A stretch of DNA of 38,043 bases from a virus (IMGVR_UViG_2537561603_000006:1-38043); one strand, 5' to 3'. Shown: positions 5,356-38,043, counted from the first letter of the stretch. Program-made: numbers and translations. Notes: generated by a model not told the origin, from the sequence alone.

Positions 5356-7191
5356 TTACCTGCCAAAGCGCGTATAGCCAACATCATGGCTGACATCAAA
5401 ACCGCTGGATCGCGTTTCCATAACCCGCATACCCGGAGGCGAATTCACAAAAGAGACCTTGATCTCACCATCAACTTTTGGCGCAGAAGCTTTGTTAATC
5501 ATGAAGGGATTCGGGCCTGTGGCATCGGAGGCGTTGTTTGACTGAGCCAGATCTACCGCCGGATAAGGTGTGTATCCCCGCGCCGGTATTCCCGTCCCAT
5601 AAGCATCATAAGCACCCGCGCCCCACTGCGCAGAGTTAATGGCATCGACCGTGTCACCGGAACTGTCGGTAAACCACTCAATAATTGGCTTCAGCTTATC
5701 CCACATATCCTGAAACCACTTAACAACCGGTCCCCAGTTATTGATCACCATCCCCAGCGGCGACCAGGCAAAAACCTTCTTCAGAAGTTCCCAGCCAGCC
5801 TCAAAATAAGGACCAATGGTTTCCCAGAGCTTCTTAAAATAAGGTCCGACAACATCCCAGTTAGTGATAATTAATCCCGCAGCCAGAGCAATCGCCGTCG
5901 CAATCATGCCAATCGGCGTCATCGACATAATCCTGCTGACAATACTGATGGCACTGCCCACGCCCATCAATCCCAGTTTCAGAATCGCAAGACCGGCAGC
6001 AAGCCCGACGACGCCGCGAATACCCCGGGGATTTTCATCCGCAAACTTCGTGAATTTCTCCCCCAACACCCCCAGCCACTGCGTGATATTTTTGGCGTCA
6101 CCAGAAAATGCGCCGCCAATAGCTGCAAGACCGTTAGTTGCGGTCCCCGTCATTGCCTCCCACAGGTTGGACAGCGTACCAAGCTGAGCCTGAACACGTT
6201 TATTCAGGCTGGCCTGTTTATTCATCTTCTGCTGGCTCTGATCGTAGCCATCCTTTCCTTTATCGATTAGTGCATTGACCACCTGAAGGGTTTCGGCATC
6301 ATCACCAAATATTGCCTTAAGTACACCGGTTCGCTTAACGTCGGTCAGTTTTCGCAGCTTTGCCAGTTGCCTGAACATGTTATCAAGACCGCCAAAACTC
6401 CCTTTGCCATCAGTAAAATCGAGCTGTACCCCGAGTTTCTGGCGGGCCATGATTTTATTGACGTCCCTGATTTTCTTAACGCTTAATCCGGACTGGATAA
6501 CTTTTCGCAGGGCATTACCTGCCGACTCCCCGTTCATCCCCATCTGATCCATCATGACACTGATGGGGGCAAGACTCTGTGCAGCCTGAAGACCGTCCTT
6601 ATTCACCATCTTCAGAACAGAGCTGGTTTTAGTGAAGAATGACAGCATGTTGGTGTCGTCAACGCCCAGATAAAACGCCTTCTGAATTGTGTCGAACAGC
6701 CCCATCATGTCTTCTGAGGCCGTTCCGGTAGCATCCTGCATCTTTGCGGCAAACTCGGCAGCCGCTTCCGGTGTTTTTTTCAGTTGTACCGCAAGATAAG
6801 CTGTCGCTTTACCCACACCACCCAGAATGTTTTCTGCCGGGATCCCCTGACGCACCAGCATCTGCATCATGTTCTGGAAATCAGCCGTTGTACCGGGTAG
6901 CTGGTTACCCAGGCCAATAGCCAGTTTATTGATGTCCTGAAAGCTCTTTCCAACCTCGCCGTTCGCATCCATCATGGCGACTTTCAGCCCGGTAGCGGCG
7001 TTTTCCTGATCGGCATAAGATTTCAGGGAAAGCGTCAGCCCCGCTGCCAGTCCGCCACCAAGCGCCAGCCCACCCTGTGACGCCTCTTCCGCCTGGCGTT
7101 TAAATCCCCGGATTTTCTTTTGCATTTTCGACAGCGCGGGAGAAAGCCTGTCGACACCGGTGATCAACGCCTTAAGCTCAAATTCAGCCAT
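5356..7191 (-). CDS. Tail tape measure protein
   Basis: 611 aa, Ala/Gly-rich with a hydrophobic central segment; sits between chaperone and DNA-circulation gene. Confidence 0.85.
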   Translation of the reverse strand: MAEFELKALITGVDRLSPALSKMQKKIRGFKRQAEEASQGGLALGGGLAAGLTLSLKSYADQENAATGLKVAMMDANGEVGKSFQDINKLAIGLGNQLPGTTADFQNMMQMLVRQGIPAENILGGVGKATAYLAVQLKKTPEAAAEFAAKMQDATGTASEDMMGLFDTIQKAFYLGVDDTNMLSFFTKTSSVLKMVNKDGLQAAQSLAPISVMMDQMGMNGESAGNALRKVIQSGLSVKKIRDVNKIMARQKLGVQLDFTDGKGSFGGLDNMFRQLAKLRKLTDVKRTGVLKAIFGDDAETLQVVNALIDKGKDGYDQSQQKMNKQASLNKRVQAQLGTLSNLWEAMTGTATNGLAAIGGAFSGDAKNITQWLGVLGEKFTKFADENPRGIRGVVGLAAGLAILKLGLMGVGSAISIVSRIMSMTPIGMIATAIALAAGLIITNWDVVGPYFKKLWETIGPYFEAGWELLKKVFAWSPLGMVINNWGPVVKWFQDMWDKLKPIIEWFTDSSGDTVDAINSAQWGAGAYDAYGTGIPARGYTPYPAVDLAQSNNASDATGPNPFMINKASAPKVDGEIKVSFVNSPPGMRVMETRSSGFDVSHDVGYTRFGR

Positions 7192-18055: not shown

Positions 18056-18460
18056 TTAAGAATGATTTTCTTTATCCTTAAAATAATACCCAATTATAAA
18101 TCCTAATGAAGTACCAAGGGCAGTAATCATTATTGACAATACCTTTTCCAGCTCGAGTGGCTTTAAATATTGAACGTAATCATCAACACCTTTGCTCTTT
18201 AACTCTAAAGCCCAATTCACAACAGAATTATTATACCAAAGAACAAAAAGACAGCTAAAAATAAGAAGGCAAAAAAAGAACCAGAGAAACGTAATAGTTA
18301 AGGCGCTTCGTGTTTTACCATCAGTATGCTTAGAGTTAACAGCATTTTCCTCTGCTTTTCCAGCTGACTCTTCAATTTTTTTATTTTCGATCCTGGCTAC
18401 TTTTAATCTATCAAGGATGTTTCCAACATCTTCAATCGACATTTGAATTCCCTCCCGCAA
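18056..18460 (-). CDS. Hypothetical membrane protein (AT-rich cargo)
   Basis: 134 aa; hydrophobic segments ALTITFLWFFFCLLIFSCLFVLWY and VLSIMITALGTSLGFIIGYYF. Confidence 0.5.
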   Translation of the reverse strand: MREGIQMSIEDVGNILDRLKVARIENKKIEESAGKAEENAVNSKHTDGKTRSALTITFLWFFFCLLIFSCLFVLWYNNSVVNWALELKSKGVDDYVQYLKPLELEKVLSIMITALGTSLGFIIGYYFKDKENHS

Positions 18461-18743
18461 TTTTAGATAAGGAGTTCATAGCCTCAACATAGTCTGAACT
18501 TAAAGACTCATTATATTTTTCAATACTCGAAATTCCATTTTTCACAACTGGGCTAATTTTTTTGTAGAGAGCAACCTGTCCTTTTTCAAACTCAGAGAGA
18601 TTATCACCAGAGTTTTTGCGGATATCCTCAATTGAGTTCAATAGATCTGTAATAAGAACCATGTGAGCATCAGCCATCGCAGCAGATGCTGCTCTGAACT
18701 CCGCAATCTTTTCAATAGCTTGTTTGATTTTTATGTTTGACAT
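18432..18743 (-). CDS. Hypothetical soluble protein (AT-rich cargo)
   Basis: 103 aa ORF upstream of, and slightly overlapping, the membrane protein gene. Confidence 0.5.
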   Translation of the reverse strand: MSNIKIKQAIEKIAEFRAASAAMADAHMVLITDLLNSIEDIRKNSGDNLSEFEKGQVALYKKISPVVKNGISSIEKYNESLSSDYVEAMNSLSKIAGGNSNVD

Positions 18744-20690: not shown

Positions 20691-21743
20691 TTATTTCCCC
20701 ACCAGTTCACTTACCTCTTTCACCGTCTGGTTAAACCGATCTGACTCAAGCTCAACACCTAACGCCCGACGCCCCAGCGCCATTGCTGCTTTTATTGTGG
20801 AACCGGATCCCATAAAGAAATCAGCAACCAGATCGCCTGGTCGACTACTGGCATTAATTATTTGCCGGAGCATATCCGCCGGTTTCTCACACGGATGTTT
20901 ACCCGGGTAGAACTGAACGGGTTTATGCGTCCAGACATCGGTATAAGGCACGGAGACTGATACGGAGAAATAACGCCGGAGAGATTTAAACTCATCCAGC
21001 AAATCAGAATATTTGCGATTCAGTGAATCATAAGATGCCACCAGCTGGTGGTGTGGTTGTTCCAGTTGTTGTTCCTGAAACTTCTCTGCCACTACACGGG
21101 AAAACAGTGCCTGCAACTTCCGGTAGTCAGCCTCATTCGGCAACTGCCACTGACTGGCACCAAACCAGTGGGAAACCATATTTTTCTTACCAGTGGCTTC
21201 GGCAATCTGTTTTGCCGTTATACCCAGTTCGGCACGAGCATCCCTGAAATACGAAATCAGCGGTGCCATTATGTGCTGTTTGAGTTGACTTTCTTTTGCC
21301 GCATAGCCGTCACTTTTGCCGCGATATGGTCCCTGGTAATGTTCAGCAAACAGAACGCGTTCTGTTGCGGGAAAATATGCGCGCAGACTTTCTTTATTAC
21401 ACCCGTTCCATCGTCCGGACGGCTTCGCCCAGATAATATGGTTAAGAACGTTGAAACGTTCACGCATCATGATCTCGATATCAGATGCGAGGCGATGTCC
21501 ACAGAACAGGTAAAGGCTTCCGGCAGGTTTCAGCACCCGCCAGAACTGGGCCAGACAGTGGTCCAGCCACTTCAGGTAATCTTCGTCCCCTTTCCACTGA
21601 TTGTCCCAACCGTTGGGTTTCACCTTGAAGTACGGCGGATCGGTAACAATCAGGTCAATGGAATCATCAGGCAGGGACTGAATAAAATGCAGGCAATCAG
21701 CGTTGATTAAATCAACACTGTTTATTTTTACAGTATTTTTCAT
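20691..21743 (-). CDS. DNA methyltransferase (N6-adenine/N4-cytosine, DPPY class)
   Basis: 350 aa; motif IV ...DLIVTDPPYF... near N-terminus; no adjacent nuclease gene. Confidence 0.85.
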   Translation of the reverse strand: MKNTVKINSVDLINADCLHFIQSLPDDSIDLIVTDPPYFKVKPNGWDNQWKGDEDYLKWLDHCLAQFWRVLKPAGSLYLFCGHRLASDIEIMMRERFNVLNHIIWAKPSGRWNGCNKESLRAYFPATERVLFAEHYQGPYRGKSDGYAAKESQLKQHIMAPLISYFRDARAELGITAKQIAEATGKKNMVSHWFGASQWQLPNEADYRKLQALFSRVVAEKFQEQQLEQPHHQLVASYDSLNRKYSDLLDEFKSLRRYFSVSVSVPYTDVWTHKPVQFYPGKHPCEKPADMLRQIINASSRPGDLVADFFMGSGSTIKAAMALGRRALGVELESDRFNQTVKEVSELVGK

Positions 21744-22356: not shown

Positions 22357-23241
22357 ATGAAATGCATCCGAAAACATCCAGCAATAGCTTATACAGTAAT
22401 TATTTTAGTTTTTGCTTTAATATACAATTTCACTTGGAGCGTCAATCCAGATTCTTTCATTAAAAACAACGTTCTCAACTCTACACCTGTATATGATGCC
22501 GTTAATTTAGCATATGCGAACAATGAGGTAAAAAAAGAAGATCCTGTCAGTGTTTCGAGGGAAGTATTTGCAGAGCAAATTTTAACACTTACAAATCAAT
22601 TCAATAAGATAACAATTGAAAACTTAGAACTTGAAAAAACATTATCTCAACAGCAAGAAAAATTAAAACAAATTAGTGAAAGACAATCAATAAAGTGGGG
22701 CGAAAACACCAAAAAATACATAGCAGACAGTTTGAAAGATTTACACAAAACGCTTATCACTAAAAATAGTGAACGTACTGCCATAACATCTTTAAAAAAC
22801 AAAACAAATGAAAGTCAGATTAACATTATGCTGGCCGACAAAGATGAAGAAATAGCCAAAATAAACCTTGAAATAGCGTATAAAGAGAATGATGCTAATG
22901 TCTATATCTTATCTCATGTCGGCGACTTTAATGATCCAATAATCGTTAATGAGCTTGACGCAATCAATAAAGAAATTGAGAAAACAAGAACAAAAATAAT
23001 AAACAATAAAAAGAAAATAATGGAGATAAGGAATAAATCTCAATCTATGCTGGAGAAACTCAAAAAAGATGACCTTAACTTTTGGGATTTCTTATTTTAT
23101 AGCATAGGAATATCTACAACGACCACCTTTGGTGATTTGTTAGCAAATTCAAGACTTATCAGACTGATAGTTTGCGTGCAACTTTTACTATCAATTATAG
23201 TTTTAGCTAACGTAACTCAAAGATTTTTATCAAAAAAATAA
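22357..23241 (+). CDS. Membrane protein with potassium-channel-like pore loop (TM1, about 210 aa coiled-coil insert, pore helix, filter-like TTTTFGD, TM2)
   Basis: 294 aa; N-terminal TM AIAYTVIILVFALIYNF; C-terminus FWDFLFYSIGISTTTTFGDLLANSRLIRLIVCVQLLLSIIVLANV aligns position for position with the channel pore-helix/filter/inner-helix pattern; AT-rich; opposite strand to flanking phage genes. Confidence 0.6.
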   Translation: MKCIRKHPAIAYTVIILVFALIYNFTWSVNPDSFIKNNVLNSTPVYDAVNLAYANNEVKKEDPVSVSREVFAEQILTLTNQFNKITIENLELEKTLSQQQEKLKQISERQSIKWGENTKKYIADSLKDLHKTLITKNSERTAITSLKNKTNESQINIMLADKDEEIAKINLEIAYKENDANVYILSHVGDFNDPIIVNELDAINKEIEKTRTKIINNKKKIMEIRNKSQSMLEKLKKDDLNFWDFLFYSIGISTTTTFGDLLANSRLIRLIVCVQLLLSIIVLANVTQRFLSKK

Positions 23242-33926: not shown

Positions 33927-34145
33927 GTGGAGAAACATATGCTGAACCTCGATTGTGTTCCAATCTCAACTTATTGCAAAGAAACTGGCGAAACTCCTGA
34001 AGCAATAAACAAACGTGTACAGCGCGGTGTTTGGCGTGAAGGTGTTCAGGTTTTAAAGGTTGAAGGCGTTAAGGAGAGGTGGATTGATCTTAGTGAGGTT
34101 GCAAAATGGGCCAGACAAAACTGCTCAAACTACCGCGCGGCGTAA
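33927..34145 (+). CDS. xis: Excisionase-like protein
   Basis: 72 aa ORF overlapping the integrase start by 40 nt. Confidence 0.55.
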   Translation: MEKHMLNLDCVPISTYCKETGETPEAINKRVQRGVWREGVQVLKVEGVKERWIDLSEVAKWARQNCSNYRAA

Positions 34146-35272
34146 CAATCAGGAAACACCGCCAGGGCGAAACGATCAATATAACTTTCACCTACAAAGG
34201 AGTTAGATGTCGTGAGCCGCTTTCCAATCTGGAAGTAACACCAAAGAACATTAAATACGCCGAGCGTACACTCGGCGAAATCCATAATAAGATCGAAAGG
34301 GGAACATTCATTTATGCAGAATATTTTCCCCGTTCTGCTCGTTTGAAAATTTTTGGTAATGCTGCTGCAGGCAAAACGGTAAAGATGTACCTGGACGAAT
34401 ATCTTGAAATCTGCGAAACAAGAAAACTTTCACCCTCTACGATTGGTGGCTATAAAAAATGCCGTAGTGCGTTAGCCTCACTTCACATTTGCCCTGCAAG
34501 TGAATTAACACCAGCAACCCTGAAAGCGTGGATTCAAAGCCAGAAAACAACCTTAAAAACCATTCGCAACCAGTTATCTTTCCTGCGGTCAGCACTTGAT
34601 GAAGCCGTGACCGATGGGGTACTTCAAATTAACCCCGTATCGTTAGTAACAGCTTCGCGCTACCAAAGTGATAAGTCAGAAGCAGAAAGCAGCTATGTGG
34701 TTGATCCGCTATCACCAGCAGAAGTTGATGCATTACTAGCAGCAGCCGGAAACAAACAATGGGAAAATCTGTTCCGGTTCGCCATACATACAGGCCTGCG
34801 TAGTTCTGAATTATGTGCCCTACGATGGCATGATATCGACTTTGTTGGAAAAACAGCCCATGTTCAGAGCGCAAGTGTTGTCGGAGTTATCAAAGGAACA
34901 AAGACAAAAGCCGGTACCCGTAAAGTTGAACTGACTGAAGAAGCAATGTTGGCGTTGATAAACCAGAAGCCATTTACATTCATGAAGGATGCTACTGTCT
35001 TTGAAGATCCAAAGACCAATAAACCCTGGGCAAGTGCTGATGCAATTAGGAAAAAAGCATGGGTGCCAACATTGCGAAAAGCAGGTATTCGTTACAGAAA
35101 CCCATATCAAACCAGGCATACATTCGCCACCAGCCATATCAGCCGGGGAGCAAACCTGTTTTGGCTTGCAGCTCAAATGGGGCATAAAGGGCCTGAGATG
35201 CTTTTCAGGCACTATGGCGCATATCTGAAGGAATATGATGGACAAACAAGCTTGAAGAAGATAACAATATAA
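34106..35272 (+). CDS. int: Tyrosine integrase
   Basis: 388 aa; catalytic-domain signatures (...RHTFATSHISRGANLFWLAAQMGH..., ...FRHYGAYL...) and N-terminal arm-binding-like domain. Confidence 0.9.
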   Translation: MGQTKLLKLPRGVTIRKHRQGETINITFTYKGVRCREPLSNLEVTPKNIKYAERTLGEIHNKIERGTFIYAEYFPRSARLKIFGNAAAGKTVKMYLDEYLEICETRKLSPSTIGGYKKCRSALASLHICPASELTPATLKAWIQSQKTTLKTIRNQLSFLRSALDEAVTDGVLQINPVSLVTASRYQSDKSEAESSYVVDPLSPAEVDALLAAAGNKQWENLFRFAIHTGLRSSELCALRWHDIDFVGKTAHVQSASVVGVIKGTKTKAGTRKVELTEEAMLALINQKPFTFMKDATVFEDPKTNKPWASADAIRKKAWVPTLRKAGIRYRNPYQTRHTFATSHISRGANLFWLAAQMGHKGPEMLFRHYGAYLKEYDGQTSLKKITI

Positions 35273-35330
35273 TCCAAGCATGAAACTATTGGCCACAATT
35301 TGTGGCCATTTTACGGAGCAAGATAGAAAC

Positions 35331-37064
35331 ATGGCAAATCAAATTACCAAACTAAAAAATATAAATGTTGTGAAGTTTCGCGGACTGAAAAATATAAACA
35401 TCGAGTTTGGTTCTCGCCTAACTGTTATTTGTGGTAAAAATGGCACATCTAAATCCACAATTCTTGGCATTATCGCCCAAATATTTAGCTTTACAAAGGA
35501 CTTTACCAAAAACCCTGAGACTGATTTAACACAATATAAAACATTAACAAATGGCAGCTTCAAGTCAGCTTTCAGCGAACATTTTAGGCTTTCAGAACAA
35601 TTTGATGTTCCTGGTTCAATGGACGTCAAAATTAGTGTCTATGATGGTGCATCGAACAAACATCTTGAAAAACTAACATTAGGTTTATACAGCTACAGTG
35701 ACAGAGATAAATCAAGGCCTGTAGTCAGGGGAAATGATTCAATACCGGAAAAAAACCAAAGTAGAAACGTTACTCATCCTGTTATTTTTTTAAGCTTAGC
35801 ACGACTTCTTCCTATTACATTAAGGACTGATTACTCAACACGGGATGTTCAGTACATCAATGAAAATTCTGATGAAATCAGAATGATGAGTAACCAACTC
35901 TTACTAAAAAACAATGGAAGCTCAGTAACAGCAACAAAAGGTACTATCGATTCAATGGTTGTCCATGGTGACAATTATGATCACCAATCAGTATCTGTTG
36001 GTGAAGATAATGTTGGACAATTAATCCAAGCAATTTTTTCATTTAAAAGATTGAAGGAAACTTATTCTGATTATCATGGCGGAATATTGTTAATTGATGA
36101 AGCCGATGCAGGTCTTTTCCCTGCTGCACAGTTAGAGCTAATTAATATTCTAACTAAAGCAGCAAAACAATACGATCTGCAAATAATCATGACCTCGCAC
36201 TCTCCATTAATAATAGAGGATATCTATAATCGTTCAAAACAAGATAGTGATAGCTTTAAAACAATATATCTTACAGACACATATGGAGATATTAAAACAA
36301 AGAATAATCTTTCATGGACAGATATCCACGCTGATTTACATGTTGAAACTGTAAAAATTAATGATGACATTTGTCTTCCAAAGGCAAATGTATATTTTGA
36401 AGACAAAGAAGGTTTCGACTTTTTCAAACAATTGATAACAGATCGAAAAATAAATAAAATATTAAATCCATTAGGGAATATAAATATTAGCTGCTCTGCC
36501 ATGCTTGACTTAATGGCAAGAAAAATACCAGAATTTACAGCTAAAAGCTTGATCGTCTTAGACGGTGATGTTGTCCACGACAATAGTGCTAATGCAAAAA
36601 AAGCCAAAAAAGAAAAAAACTTATGTTTGCTTCCAAGCACCTTACCTCCAGACCAAATGATTTTTGAGTTTTTATATAATTTACCACCTGATGATGCATA
36701 TTGGGAAAATAAAAATAAATTTACAAAAGCTGTTTTTATGAAAACAGCTAAAGACATAATTGCAACGCTAAAGATTGGTAACGCTCCGATTGATTTAAAA
36801 ATCCTTATAGATAATTATAAAAAAGTTAACAAAAAACATGGCGGGATAGTTAGAAAACTGTTTAAAGATTTTGCACATACGACTCAATTTCAGGCCCAAG
36901 TAAAAGGGCGAGTTAAAGATAACCCATATCGATATTGGGTCGAGAAAAATCCTGTGCAATCGGATAGCTTCAAGAATGAACTAATAAAGAGTCTTAAAGT
37001 TATTATGACAAGTGGACATGGTGTCGATTCTGCTACCATCTCATCATATCTGTCAGATAACTAA
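35331..37064 (+). CDS. OLD-family-like ATPase with putative C-terminal Toprim nuclease domain
   Basis: N-terminus MANQITKLKNINVVKFRGLKNINIEFG; Walker A-like ICGKNGTSKSTIL; Walker B ILLIDEADAGLF; C-terminal ...YFEDKEG... then about 54 aa later ...LIVLDGD... (Toprim-like Glu/DxD spacing); GGAG upstream of ATG 35331; AT-rich. Confidence 0.65.
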   Translation: MANQITKLKNINVVKFRGLKNINIEFGSRLTVICGKNGTSKSTILGIIAQIFSFTKDFTKNPETDLTQYKTLTNGSFKSAFSEHFRLSEQFDVPGSMDVKISVYDGASNKHLEKLTLGLYSYSDRDKSRPVVRGNDSIPEKNQSRNVTHPVIFLSLARLLPITLRTDYSTRDVQYINENSDEIRMMSNQLLLKNNGSSVTATKGTIDSMVVHGDNYDHQSVSVGEDNVGQLIQAIFSFKRLKETYSDYHGGILLIDEADAGLFPAAQLELINILTKAAKQYDLQIIMTSHSPLIIEDIYNRSKQDSDSFKTIYLTDTYGDIKTKNNLSWTDIHADLHVETVKINDDICLPKANVYFEDKEGFDFFKQLITDRKINKILNPLGNINISCSAMLDLMARKIPEFTAKSLIVLDGDVVHDNSANAKKAKKEKNLCLLPSTLPPDQMIFEFLYNLPPDDAYWENKNKFTKAVFMKTAKDIIATLKIGNAPIDLKILIDNYKKVNKKHGGIVRKLFKDFAHTTQFQAQVKGRVKDNPYRYWVEKNPVQSDSFKNELIKSLKVIMTSGHGVDSATISSYLSDN

Positions 37065-37074
37065 TTGATTAAAA

Positions 37075-37110
37075 AGGGCTTTATGTGATGGCCACAAAGC
37101 CCTTTTTTTG
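37075..37110 (+). terminator. Intrinsic terminator after the ATPase gene
   Basis: AGGGCTTT-13 nt loop-AAAGCCCT followed by TTTTTT. Confidence 0.55.
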
Positions 37111-37143
37111 ATATACTTTAGATCTGACATTTAGAGGTATCAT

Positions 37144-38043
37144 ATGCGTTTTAACACCCCACTTCGCTATCCTGGCGGTAAAGGCAAGCTTGCAAATTTC
37201 ATGCTTCGGCTTATTGAAGAAAATAATCTTTCGCCTATACATTATGCCGAACCATATGCTGGGGGTGCTGGTTTAGCATTGAAACTGTTACATCTAAATG
37301 CAGCTGAAAAAATCATCCTTAATGATATTAATATTTCTGTTTATGCTTTTTGGCACAGTGTATTAAATCATGCAGATCAATTATGTTCTTTAATTGAAAG
37401 AACTGAAGTTACAATGGATGAATGGTTTAGGCAGAAAGATATAATTAATAATCCTAAAGACCATGATCTTTTAACAATTGGTTTCTCAACCTTTTTTCTC
37501 AATAGAACAAATCGTTCTGGAATATTAAAAGGTGGAGTAATTGGCGGTAAAAATCAAGAAGGGAAATGGAAGCTTGACGCTCGCTATAATAAGAGTGATT
37601 TGATTTCTCGAATCCATAAAATATCAGAAAATCGTCACAGAATAGATTTATATAACATGGATGCAATTGATTTCATTAAAAAAATAGTTATTCAATTGCC
37701 ACAAAACTCATTAACATATTTGGATCCACCTTATTACATAAAAGGTAAAGGTTTATATATCAACCATTATAATCATGATGATCATGTTAGGGTTGCAAAA
37801 GTCGTACAGAATAATATTAAAACACCTTGGATTGTTTCTTACGATAACACTCCTGAGATCCAAGCTATGTATAAGACATCATCATTAGTATATGGAATAA
37901 ACTACAGTGCCCAAGATCGGTACAAAGGATCTGAGGTAATGTTCTTCAGTGAACGATTGAAAATCTTTAAAACAGATGATCCAACTAAGGTAAAAGCGCC
38001 TGTATTTAAAAGAGGATGTGTTGACGACCACATCCAGACATAA
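37144..38043 (+). CDS. Dam-class (D12) N6-adenine DNA methyltransferase
   Basis: 299 aa; ...LRYPGGKGKL..., ...AEPYAGGAGLAL... (AdoMet-binding), ...LDPPYY... (catalytic DPPY); complete, stop at 38041-38043; AT-rich. Confidence 0.85.
   Translation: MRFNTPLRYPGGKGKLANFMLRLIEENNLSPIHYAEPYAGGAGLALKLLHLNAAEKIILNDINISVYAFWHSVLNHADQLCSLIERTEVTMDEWFRQKDIINNPKDHDLLTIGFSTFFLNRTNRSGILKGGVIGGKNQEGKWKLDARYNKSDLISRIHKISENRHRIDLYNMDAIDFIKKIVIQLPQNSLTYLDPPYYIKGKGLYINHYNHDDHVRVAKVVQNNIKTPWIVSYDNTPEIQAMYKTSSLVYGINYSAQDRYKGSEVMFFSERLKIFKTDDPTKVKAPVFKRGCVDDHIQT

Follow-up and report, generated by a model that had tools for sequence, protein, structure and literature searches.

The viral sequence IMGVR_UViG_2537561603_000006:1-38043 was analysed over its full length of 38,043 nucleotides (nt), the stretch that we call the window, and the feature under study is its last 2.7 kb (positions 35331-38043), which is filled by two complete genes on the + strand. 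The first gene (35331-37064, +) encodes a protein of 577 residues, described from its open reading frame (ORF), its Pfam matches, its homologues and a structural model as an ATP-binding cassette (ABC) ATPase of the OLD type with a C-terminal Toprim-like domain, and it is taken here as the putative effector of the pair. The second gene (37144-38043, +) encodes an N6-adenine DNA methyltransferase of the D12 class, 299 residues long, recognised by PADLOC as a member of the PD-Lambda-5_B family and by Pfam as PF02086, and its stop codon ends with the final base of the window. Both genes lie directly downstream of a prophage tyrosine integrase (34106-35272, +; Pfam Arm-DNA-bind_2 at 1e-23 and Phage_integrase at 2.6e-16), which is annotated as "site-specific integrase" in NZ_CP123009. 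Downstream of the pair, that record has another integrase and, beyond it, the host genes yghU, gss, and pitB; the position between int and the prophage end, which the pair therefore occupies, is the classical one for cargo. The G+C content of the pair region was 0.32-0.38 versus 0.42-0.59 across most of the window. A preliminary description of this DNA had drawn attention to an AT-rich pair adjoining int, and composition and position were both borne out, as was every motif that it quoted, each being found in its place.

The start of the effector gene was fixed by comparison with E. coli chromosomes in which the ATPase is annotated by RefSeq and which are 99.8% identical to the window across this stretch. 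In identical E. coli loci the RefSeq start is the same, and the protein begins with MANQITKLKNINVVKFRGLKNINIEFG (MANQITKL). An alternative, longer ORF opens at 35280, but the conserved N-terminus of the homologues begins at MANQ.

The effector has more than 1100 homologues, and Pfam detected AAA_15, AAA_21, and AAA_23 in it. Its conservation was evaluated in a set of 42 homologues at 50-88% identity. In the Walker A motif or P-loop, GKNGTSKST (G35-K-N-G-T-S-K41-S42; 35433-35456, +), residues G35, K36, N37, G38, T39, K41, and S42 were invariant, and the motif was also retained in relatives at 24-44% identity. The Walker B motif ILLIDE (D256-E257; 36084-36101, +) is followed by the D-loop ADAGLFPAAQ; residues L254, I255, D256, E257, and D259-Q267 did not vary, and Walker B was conserved in the distant relatives too. 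A signature-like segment SVGEDNVGQ (S222-x-G-E-D-N-x-G-Q), a TSHSP motif, and H290 were likewise invariant, so the Walker A, signature, Walker B, and H-loop motifs of the OLD-clade ABC ATPases were all found. Alignment of the effector family profile with a profile of P2 Old homologues by hhalign gave 92.7% probability and an E value of 4e-7 over residues 6-296. The AlphaFold (AF2) model was confident, with a mean pLDDT (predicted score in the local distance difference test) of 89.9, and the top whole-chain Foldseek matches were Thermus OLD (6p74) and Gabija GajA, over 540-690 aligned columns. On the strength of the Pfam families, the invariant motifs, the P2 Old alignment, and the Foldseek matches, we assign the N-terminal half of the effector, as judged from sequence and model, to the ABC ATPases of the OLD clade. 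This agrees with the ABC/AAA_21-type N-terminus, with a Walker A-like GKNGTSKST and a Walker B LLIDEAD, that had been proposed at the outset.

The C-terminal part of the protein is less straightforward. In the AF2 model, residues 348-450 (36372-36680, +) were predicted as beta-alpha repeats with a Toprim-like core, in which strand 1 ends in E357 (NVYFED, with D358 and E360), D411-G-D413 (VLDGD) follows strand 3, and LPPDQ (D441) follows strand 4 (LLP). E357 and D411/D413 are 54 residues apart and invariant in the 42 homologues, as expected from the acidic glutamate followed some 54 residues later by VLDGD that had been noticed beforehand, and the same E/DxD motifs persisted in methylase-linked relatives of 24-44% identity. 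The PADLOC hidden Markov model (HMM) of HEC-04 matched the whole effector in two stretches (3.8e-16, 56.8 bits), the C-terminal domain taken alone in 10 out of 20 homologues (best E value 1.5e-5), and the E. coli paralogue L082 across residues 252-441 (3.4e-22); the HMM of the retron type I-B "ATPase-Toprim" also aligned through the Toprim-like region. The closest structural relatives of the domain include AriB. The proposal of a Toprim C-terminus is supported by the predicted fold, the invariant E/DxD residues, and the HEC-04 and retron HMMs, and it finds no echo in three other comparisons: Pfam gave no Toprim match in the effector or in 10 distant methylase-linked relatives, which returned ATPase domains only, and nothing but noise on the C-terminal domain of 20 homologues (including one OLD-like_TOPRIM_1 match at E 0.27), a PDB profile search with this domain alone gave nothing at E <= 10, and hhalign of the C-terminal profile with the P2 Old family profile gave 0.6% probability. 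By sequence, then, the Toprim-like domain appears remote from the Pfam Toprim_OLD family. Taking into account the predicted fold, the invariant E357, D411, and D413, and the HMM alignments, we consider it very probable that the C-terminal domain is a metal-dependent nuclease of the Toprim type, an activity predicted from these features. Beyond the core the model shows an all-helical domain (residues 455-577; 36693-37061, +; helices H466-574), in which the conservation of the protein is lowest, the columns scoring 0.47-0.63 versus 0.8-0.9 in the ATPase core.

Among characterized proteins one close in organization is HEC-04, an ABC ATPase with a fused TOPRIM domain in which mutants of Walker A and of E319/D375/D377 lose defence (Payne et al. 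2024, bioRxiv 10.1101/2024.01.29.577857), together with its homologue IbfA of the IncI1 plasmids (R64/pUA1135 ibfA). Both act alone and are toxic on induction, and IbfA behaves as an abortive infection system. They share with the window effector a single polypeptide in which an ABC ATPase precedes an E...DxD domain of similar spacing (E319/D375/D377 versus E357/D411/D413), but they are of about 500 residues, without the extra C-terminal helical region, and are single genes, whereas the window family is methylase-linked. The similarity is remote: no tblastn match to IncI1 ibfA plasmids was obtained at E <= 1e-6.

The described OLD nucleases (P2 Old, class 1; GajA, class 2; retron, class 3; PARIS AriA/AriB, class 4) resemble the effector in having an N-terminal ABC ATPase, a C-terminal Toprim-like domain, and a length near 580 residues, and P2 Old is, in addition, a lysogenic-conversion gene at a prophage end. 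Nevertheless, Pfam Toprim_OLD (PF20469) was found in all P2 Old homologues and is absent from the window effector, and none of the four classes has a methylase partner. Gabija was rejected, as the matches of the GajA HMM were confined to the ATPase segments and no UvrD-like helicase GajB adjoins. PARIS, Septu, retron effector, and Menshen were discarded too, their HMM matches spanning ATPase segments only and their partner genes being absent; for PARIS in particular, no AriB/AriAB (DUF4435 Toprim) model matched over the C-terminal part. No GajB-type helicase, retron, or separate AriB was conserved beside the pair in the 80 loci described below. In work on ABC ATPases in conflict systems, Krishnan et al. 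(2020) reportedly noted OLD-type ABC ATPases with modules like those of restriction-modification (R-M).

The methylase was recognised over nearly its whole length. Pfam PF02086 (MethyltransfD12) matched at 2.2e-19 with 70.6 bits, the cut-off being 22, and covered positions 1-245 of the 253 in the profile. Its best match in any library was PADLOC PD-Lambda-5_B (PDLC04018; 5.1e-124), with residues 1-282 aligned to positions 1-283 of the 291 in that model. Across 13 diverse members of the family, among them PD-lambda-5-linked ones, the motif I for S-adenosylmethionine binding, EPYAGGAG (residues 36-43; 37249-37272, +), kept E36, P37, A39, G40, and G41 invariant, and the catalytic motif IV, DPPY (residues 194-197; 37723-37734, +), was invariant in D194, P195, P196, and Y197. 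The protein is conserved end to end, including the FFLNRTNRSGILKGGVIGGK segment, and its sole PDB sequence match was 7m6b (1e-16). A complete D12 N6-adenine methyltransferase with YPGGK, EPYAGGAG, and DPPYY was therefore confirmed. The earlier label "Dam-class" holds as regards the D12 class and fails for the Dam subfamily itself: a canonical GATC Dam enzyme was rejected, the score with NCBIfam TIGR00571 being 54.1 bits, under the cut-off of 114.85.

The family name comes with a functional precedent. Vassallo et al. 2022 (PMC9519451) described PD-lambda-5 from E. coli ECOR7 as a "ParB/HEPN, methyltransferase" system of 2461 bp, which gave broad anti-phage protection, strongest on T-even phages, and which its discoverers interpreted as a compact "RM+Abi" (restriction-modification plus abortive infection) system. 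Its cloning needed a host deleted for the mrr region (PMC9519451), which implies active methylation by PD-lambda-5 in vivo.

The evidence on which the significance of the pair depends is its recurrence. We collected 80 loci seeded with the ATPase, one per species, which span at least six phyla (Enterobacterales, Pseudomonas, Acinetobacter, Halomonadaceae, many Betaproteobacteria, Azospirillum, Geobacter, Bacteroidota, Mycobacteria, Acidobacteriota, and Listeria). In 78 of them there was enough DNA to judge, and all 78 carried a methylase homologue, at 38-64% identity (89% in the frameshifted copy of L002). In about 70 loci the methylase followed the ATPase immediately on the same strand, the distance between them ranging from -10 to +139 nt and the genes often overlapping by 1-4 nt; in a few it was convergent or upstream. 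Clustering of all flanking ORFs of the 80 loci revealed no third conserved gene. The distance matrices of ATPase and methylase co-varied (r = 0.77, Mantel p = 0.001). Among 5426 complete E. coli genomes the ATPase was present in 85, the methylase in 85, and the whole pair in 85. A second E. coli allele, with an ATPase 47% and a methylase 57% identical to those of the window, lies between icd and intE of an e14-like prophage.

These data decide on one alternative, namely, that a stand-alone abortive-infection ATPase of the HEC-04 kind and an orphan phage Dam-type methylase, evading host restriction, are neighbours by chance. Such an arrangement would accord with the terminator and separate promoter-like site between the two genes, with the ability of HEC-04 and IbfA to work alone, and with the presence of other orphan methylases in the same prophage. 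Against that stand the co-occurrence in every judgeable locus across at least six phyla, the overlapping stop and start codons in many of them, the co-varying distances, the lack of any other conserved neighbour, and the equal counts in E. coli. The pairing is therefore not fortuitous; the chance reading is effectively refuted by the co-occurrence data, and we give it hardly any credit. The preliminary description had entertained two independent genes as an option, which is contradicted by this result, and had let its proposal hang on the pair recurring in other genomes, which it does.

The linkage is also asymmetric. The ATPase without the methylase was seen neither among the 78 genome loci nor among the 85 E. 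coli genomes, and some loci have the methylase without a partner, a situation that fits a toxin/antidote or an R-M relationship. In Symbiopectobacterium sp. (L002) and in Listeria rocourtiae (L081) both genes are frameshifted, an apparent case of joint decay. The carriers of the pair are for the most part prophages and islands. Different beta-proteobacterial genera share near-identical copies of it, suggesting that a defence island carrying the pair moved horizontally in recent times. In beta-proteobacterial loci (L021, L030, L015, and some 10-19 further ones) a type III Mod (about 587 residues)/Res (about 911 residues) pair and a fragment of an SNF2-type helicase were found 2-5 kb away. In a P2-like Vibrio phage a 30%-identical ATPase is convergent with a Dam-type methylase, and a search of plasmids returned only 14 weak or atypical matches. 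As to the Citrobacter phage phiNP, its record (OR565852.1) annotates the ATPase and nothing downstream, and the paper on this prophage lists the ATPase only as a "fitness" gene; tblastn located an 89%-identical methylase, residues 1-289, at 5814-6680 of our locus L085 (about 43926-44792 of OR565852.1), downstream of the annotated ATPase, so that the methylase of phiNP is present but unannotated.

Asymmetry and tight linkage of this kind, known from R-M and toxin-antitoxin pairs, bring to mind an addiction module in which the methylase would be the antidote and the nuclease the toxin, stabilising the prophage by post-segregational killing with little or no anti-phage role. The position at the edge of integrative elements beside int and the joint decay in L002 and L081 are compatible with it. 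On the other hand, phage protection is known for the sister system PD-lambda-5 as well as for HEC-04, which is related, and the pair is also found outside prophages, beside the type III R-M system. Addiction and defence are not mutually exclusive, and pure addiction would be compatible with an R-M-like relationship as well as with a guard function; as an account on its own, we regard it as improbable.

The relation to PD-lambda-5 was examined from both the methylase and the effector side. Both are two-gene, phage-borne modules; their methylases belong to the same family, with shared motifs including FFLNRTNRSGIL and the score of 5.1e-124 with the PADLOC B model; and each effector combines an NTPase-type with a nuclease-type domain. 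The difference lies in the partner, which is a ParB/HEPN protein in PD-lambda-5 and an ABC ATPase-Toprim protein here. E. coli methylases beside PD-Lambda-5_A genes were 51-53% identical to the window methylase, one of these PD-Lambda-5_A/methylase loci being a 2460-bp unit in the P2 hotspot. Genuine PD-Lambda-5_A partners scored 1e-167 (L084) and 4e-74 (L083), and no PD-Lambda-5_A model was among the 25 best PADLOC matches of the window ATPase. No PD-Lambda-5_A (ParB/HEPN) gene adjoins the methylase, whose neighbours are the ABC ATPase and, in E. coli, another integrase. PADLOC 2.0.0 would not call a system at this locus, because no PD-Lambda-5_A model stands among those 25 best matches of the partner.

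Effector usage was then surveyed in IMG/VR contigs seeded with the methylase (at least 38% identity, roughly 61 loci). The partner was an ABC ATPase in about 19 of the 61 loci and a ParB/HEPN protein in about 29, the rest being contig edges or apparent orphans, and in the methylase tree the two partner types were interleaved. It was also possible to observe the exchange directly: the contigs 3300043039_000093 (L116) and 3300011625_000001 (L117) have methylase genes of 87% DNA identity and syntenic phage flanks, and the same upstream slot holds a ParB/HEPN gene in one and an ABC ATPase-Toprim gene in the other. From the interleaved tree and from this swap within a syntenic backbone it follows that the two effector types are interchangeable cassettes beside one methylase family.

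No paper naming or testing the ATPase-methylase dyad, and none mentioning its RefSeq protein accessions, was found in the literature; a paper on PAO1161 that deals with an OLD nuclease and a methyltransferase was set aside as irrelevant, the two genes being unlinked there. What is new, then, is the dyad, for which PADLOC 2.0.0 has no model; its parts, an ATPase-Toprim protein of the OLD/HEC-04 sort and a methylase of the PD-Lambda-5_B family, are of known kinds. The earlier statement that the pairing is not a described system is right for the dyad, which is unnamed, and needs qualification for its parts, of which the methylase belongs to the described PD-lambda-5 and the ATPase is remote kin of the validated HEC-04 and IbfA.

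Considering the domain make-up, the strict two-gene linkage, the PD-Lambda-5_B membership, and the effector interchangeability beside the methylase, which form the observed basis, we think it rather probable that the pair is a prophage-carried, methylation-coupled, and ATP-gated nuclease defence module, R-M-like and of an architecture sister to that of PD-lambda-5. The methylase would place N6-methyladenine on the resident DNA, an activity that we infer because its catalytic motifs are invariant and because the cloning of PD-lambda-5 needed the mrr-region deletion. The effector takes the slot held by the ParB/HEPN protein in PD-lambda-5. Its ABC ATPase could serve as a nucleotide-dependent switch or sensor, and its Toprim domain (E357, D411, D413) would cut nucleic acid. 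Harm to the host from the effector would be prevented by the methylation mark or by the methylase as such, and unmarked invading DNA or the infected cell would be attacked. Presumptive elements of this proposal are the nuclease activity, the kind of substrate (DNA or RNA), the motif recognised, and a function of the pair against phages. With type II and III R-M systems the pair shares a methylase adjoining a putative nuclease, a nuclease never found without its methylase, and a predicted independent methylase promoter, and, with type III Res, an ATP-dependent effector; it differs in that the fold of the effector is unlike known restriction endonucleases or Res helicases and in that there is no variable target-recognition region.

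Several points weigh against this proposal. Since HEC-04 and IbfA function without a methylase, an ATPase-Toprim protein is not inherently methylation-dependent, and by analogy the effector need not require methylation for self-tolerance. The effector showed no identifiable domain for sequence-specific binding of DNA. Along the methylase there is no hypervariable target-recognition region, unlike in classical R-M families that diversify their specificity. PD-lambda-5 works best versus T-even phages, whose DNA resists most R-M enzymes, and has been called "RM+Abi" and not plain R-M (PMC9519451). Finally, the searchable literature yielded no experiment on the pair.

A tentative variant would accommodate part of this. 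The methylase could be a shared subunit for specificity and self-marking, onto which unrelated NTPase-nuclease effectors, ABC ATPase-Toprim or ParB-HEPN, are plugged as cassettes; the effector would have no sequence recognition of its own and would take its cue from the methylase or its mark, in the way that type III Res relies on Mod. Such an organization would explain the swaps of effectors by near-identical methylases, the lack of a hypervariable recognition region, and the action on T-even phages. If true, it would represent a new R-M type built on an OLD-like, ATP-driven Toprim nuclease. We see it as possible, and favour it no further than that.

The type of effector also calls for a comparison with guard systems. 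PrrC-EcoprrI and RloC resemble the pair in that an ABC ATPase-nuclease is genetically tied to a DNA methylase module, with the "RM+Abi" logic that has been invoked for PD-lambda-5, and they differ in that here there is no restriction or specificity subunit, the nuclease domain is Toprim-like and not HEPN, and nothing demonstrates a latent tRNase. In a guard-type abortive infection, PrrC/EcoprrI- or PARIS-like, the effector would lie latent under the methylase, or monitor it, until an anti-restriction protein or a DNA mimic of the phage triggers the cleavage of host tRNA or bulk nucleic acid; methylation would be a separate first layer or a by-product. Speaking for this, the alternative partner carries HEPN, usually an RNase; AriB, a Toprim that cleaves tRNA (PMC12409363), is among the closest relatives of the C-terminal domain in structure; HEC-04 and IbfA are stand-alone proteins that are toxic when induced, IbfA being abortive; and ABC ATPases of this clade are known to sense phage proteins. 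However, a lone Dam-like methylase is no obvious target for phage inhibitors, and the invariant methylase motifs, together with the DNA modification in vivo by the PD-lambda-5 methylase, point to the importance of the mark. That the nuclease never occurs without the methylase does not favour a guard, as it fits the R-M-like module equally. On balance a guard function, which is the main rival, seems less probable to us, and the R-M-like module is retained as the preferred interpretation.

Between the two genes there is a spacer of 79 nt, in which RNA folding revealed an intrinsic-terminator-like hairpin, AAAAAGGGCUUU...AAAGCCCUUUUUUU (37071-37108, +), with a free energy of -17.2 kcal/mol and z = -4.15, followed by U7; none of 200 shuffles was equally stable. 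A simple terminator scan did not pick up this hairpin, which folding against shuffles did, and the terminator announced in the preliminary description is consequently substantiated. The hairpin is kept in phiNP and in the IMG/VR locus L088. A consensus scan further gave a promoter-like site, TGGCCA-17-TATACT with TG (37089-37117, +), directly upstream of the methylase and overlapping the hairpin, and promoter-like elements were also present in the intergenic region of diverged enterobacterial loci. The site directly upstream of the methylase suggests that this gene may be expressed independently of the ATPase, from a predicted promoter of its own behind the terminator.

A perfect palindrome, GGCCACAAtTTGTGGCC, was read directly from the sequence after the int stop codon and ahead of the ATPase start (35293-35309). 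The loop of the intergenic hairpin contains its half-site TGGCCACA once more (37089-37096), in overlap with the -35-like hexamer of the promoter-like site, and a related ATGGCCA(C/T)A was found at the same place in phiNP, L088, L089, and L004; the conservation in phiNP and L088 was partial. Palindrome and half-site could be a candidate operator or a methylation-sensitive control site. In the diverged enterobacterial copies L082, L012, and L025, which sit at a prophage end beside icd/intE, three direct repeats (G)TTATCAAAA were seen about 100 nt upstream of the ATPase start; these may be candidate arm-type sites of the integrase or an operator.

Other genes of the same prophage were also inspected. 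A second methylase of 350 residues (20691-21743, -; Pfam N6_N4_Mtase at 6e-42, PADLOC MTase_II at 3e-152) is located beside the lysis genes, without an adjacent nuclease candidate, and a near-identical E. coli prophage has a third one, annotated as "phage N-6-adenine-methyltransferase", in its early region (L001, 262-915). In an AT-rich island (G+C 0.35) at 22357-23241 (+) there is an ORF of 294 residues, in which the N-terminus has a transmembrane segment, a long middle part is coiled-coil-like, and the C-terminus matches Ion_trans_2 (2.5e-5); it had no PADLOC match and may, by its predicted features, be another gene of lysogenic conversion or abortive infection. At 18056-18743 (-), in the kilobase of the window that is richest in AT (G+C 0.32), lie two overlapping small ORFs of 134 residues (with a transmembrane segment) and 103 residues, for which no meaningful Pfam or PADLOC match was found.

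If active, the pair would be a widespread defence module missed by current annotation, given its presence in at least 80 species-level genomes of at least six phyla and in many viral contigs; the allele of the window alone occurs in 85 of 5426 complete E. coli genomes. PADLOC 2.0.0 would show at most an orphan PD-Lambda-5_B or a type II methylase. It would add a methylase-linked class to the four described classes of OLD nucleases. The effector swap is a natural experiment on how one methylation mark couples to very different effectors, and it also bears on the role of the methylase in PD-lambda-5. For the hosts, the pair would be a further lysogenic-conversion locus by int, and it may influence both gene flow and the exclusion of superinfecting phages in E. 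coli, Citrobacter, Klebsiella, and others.

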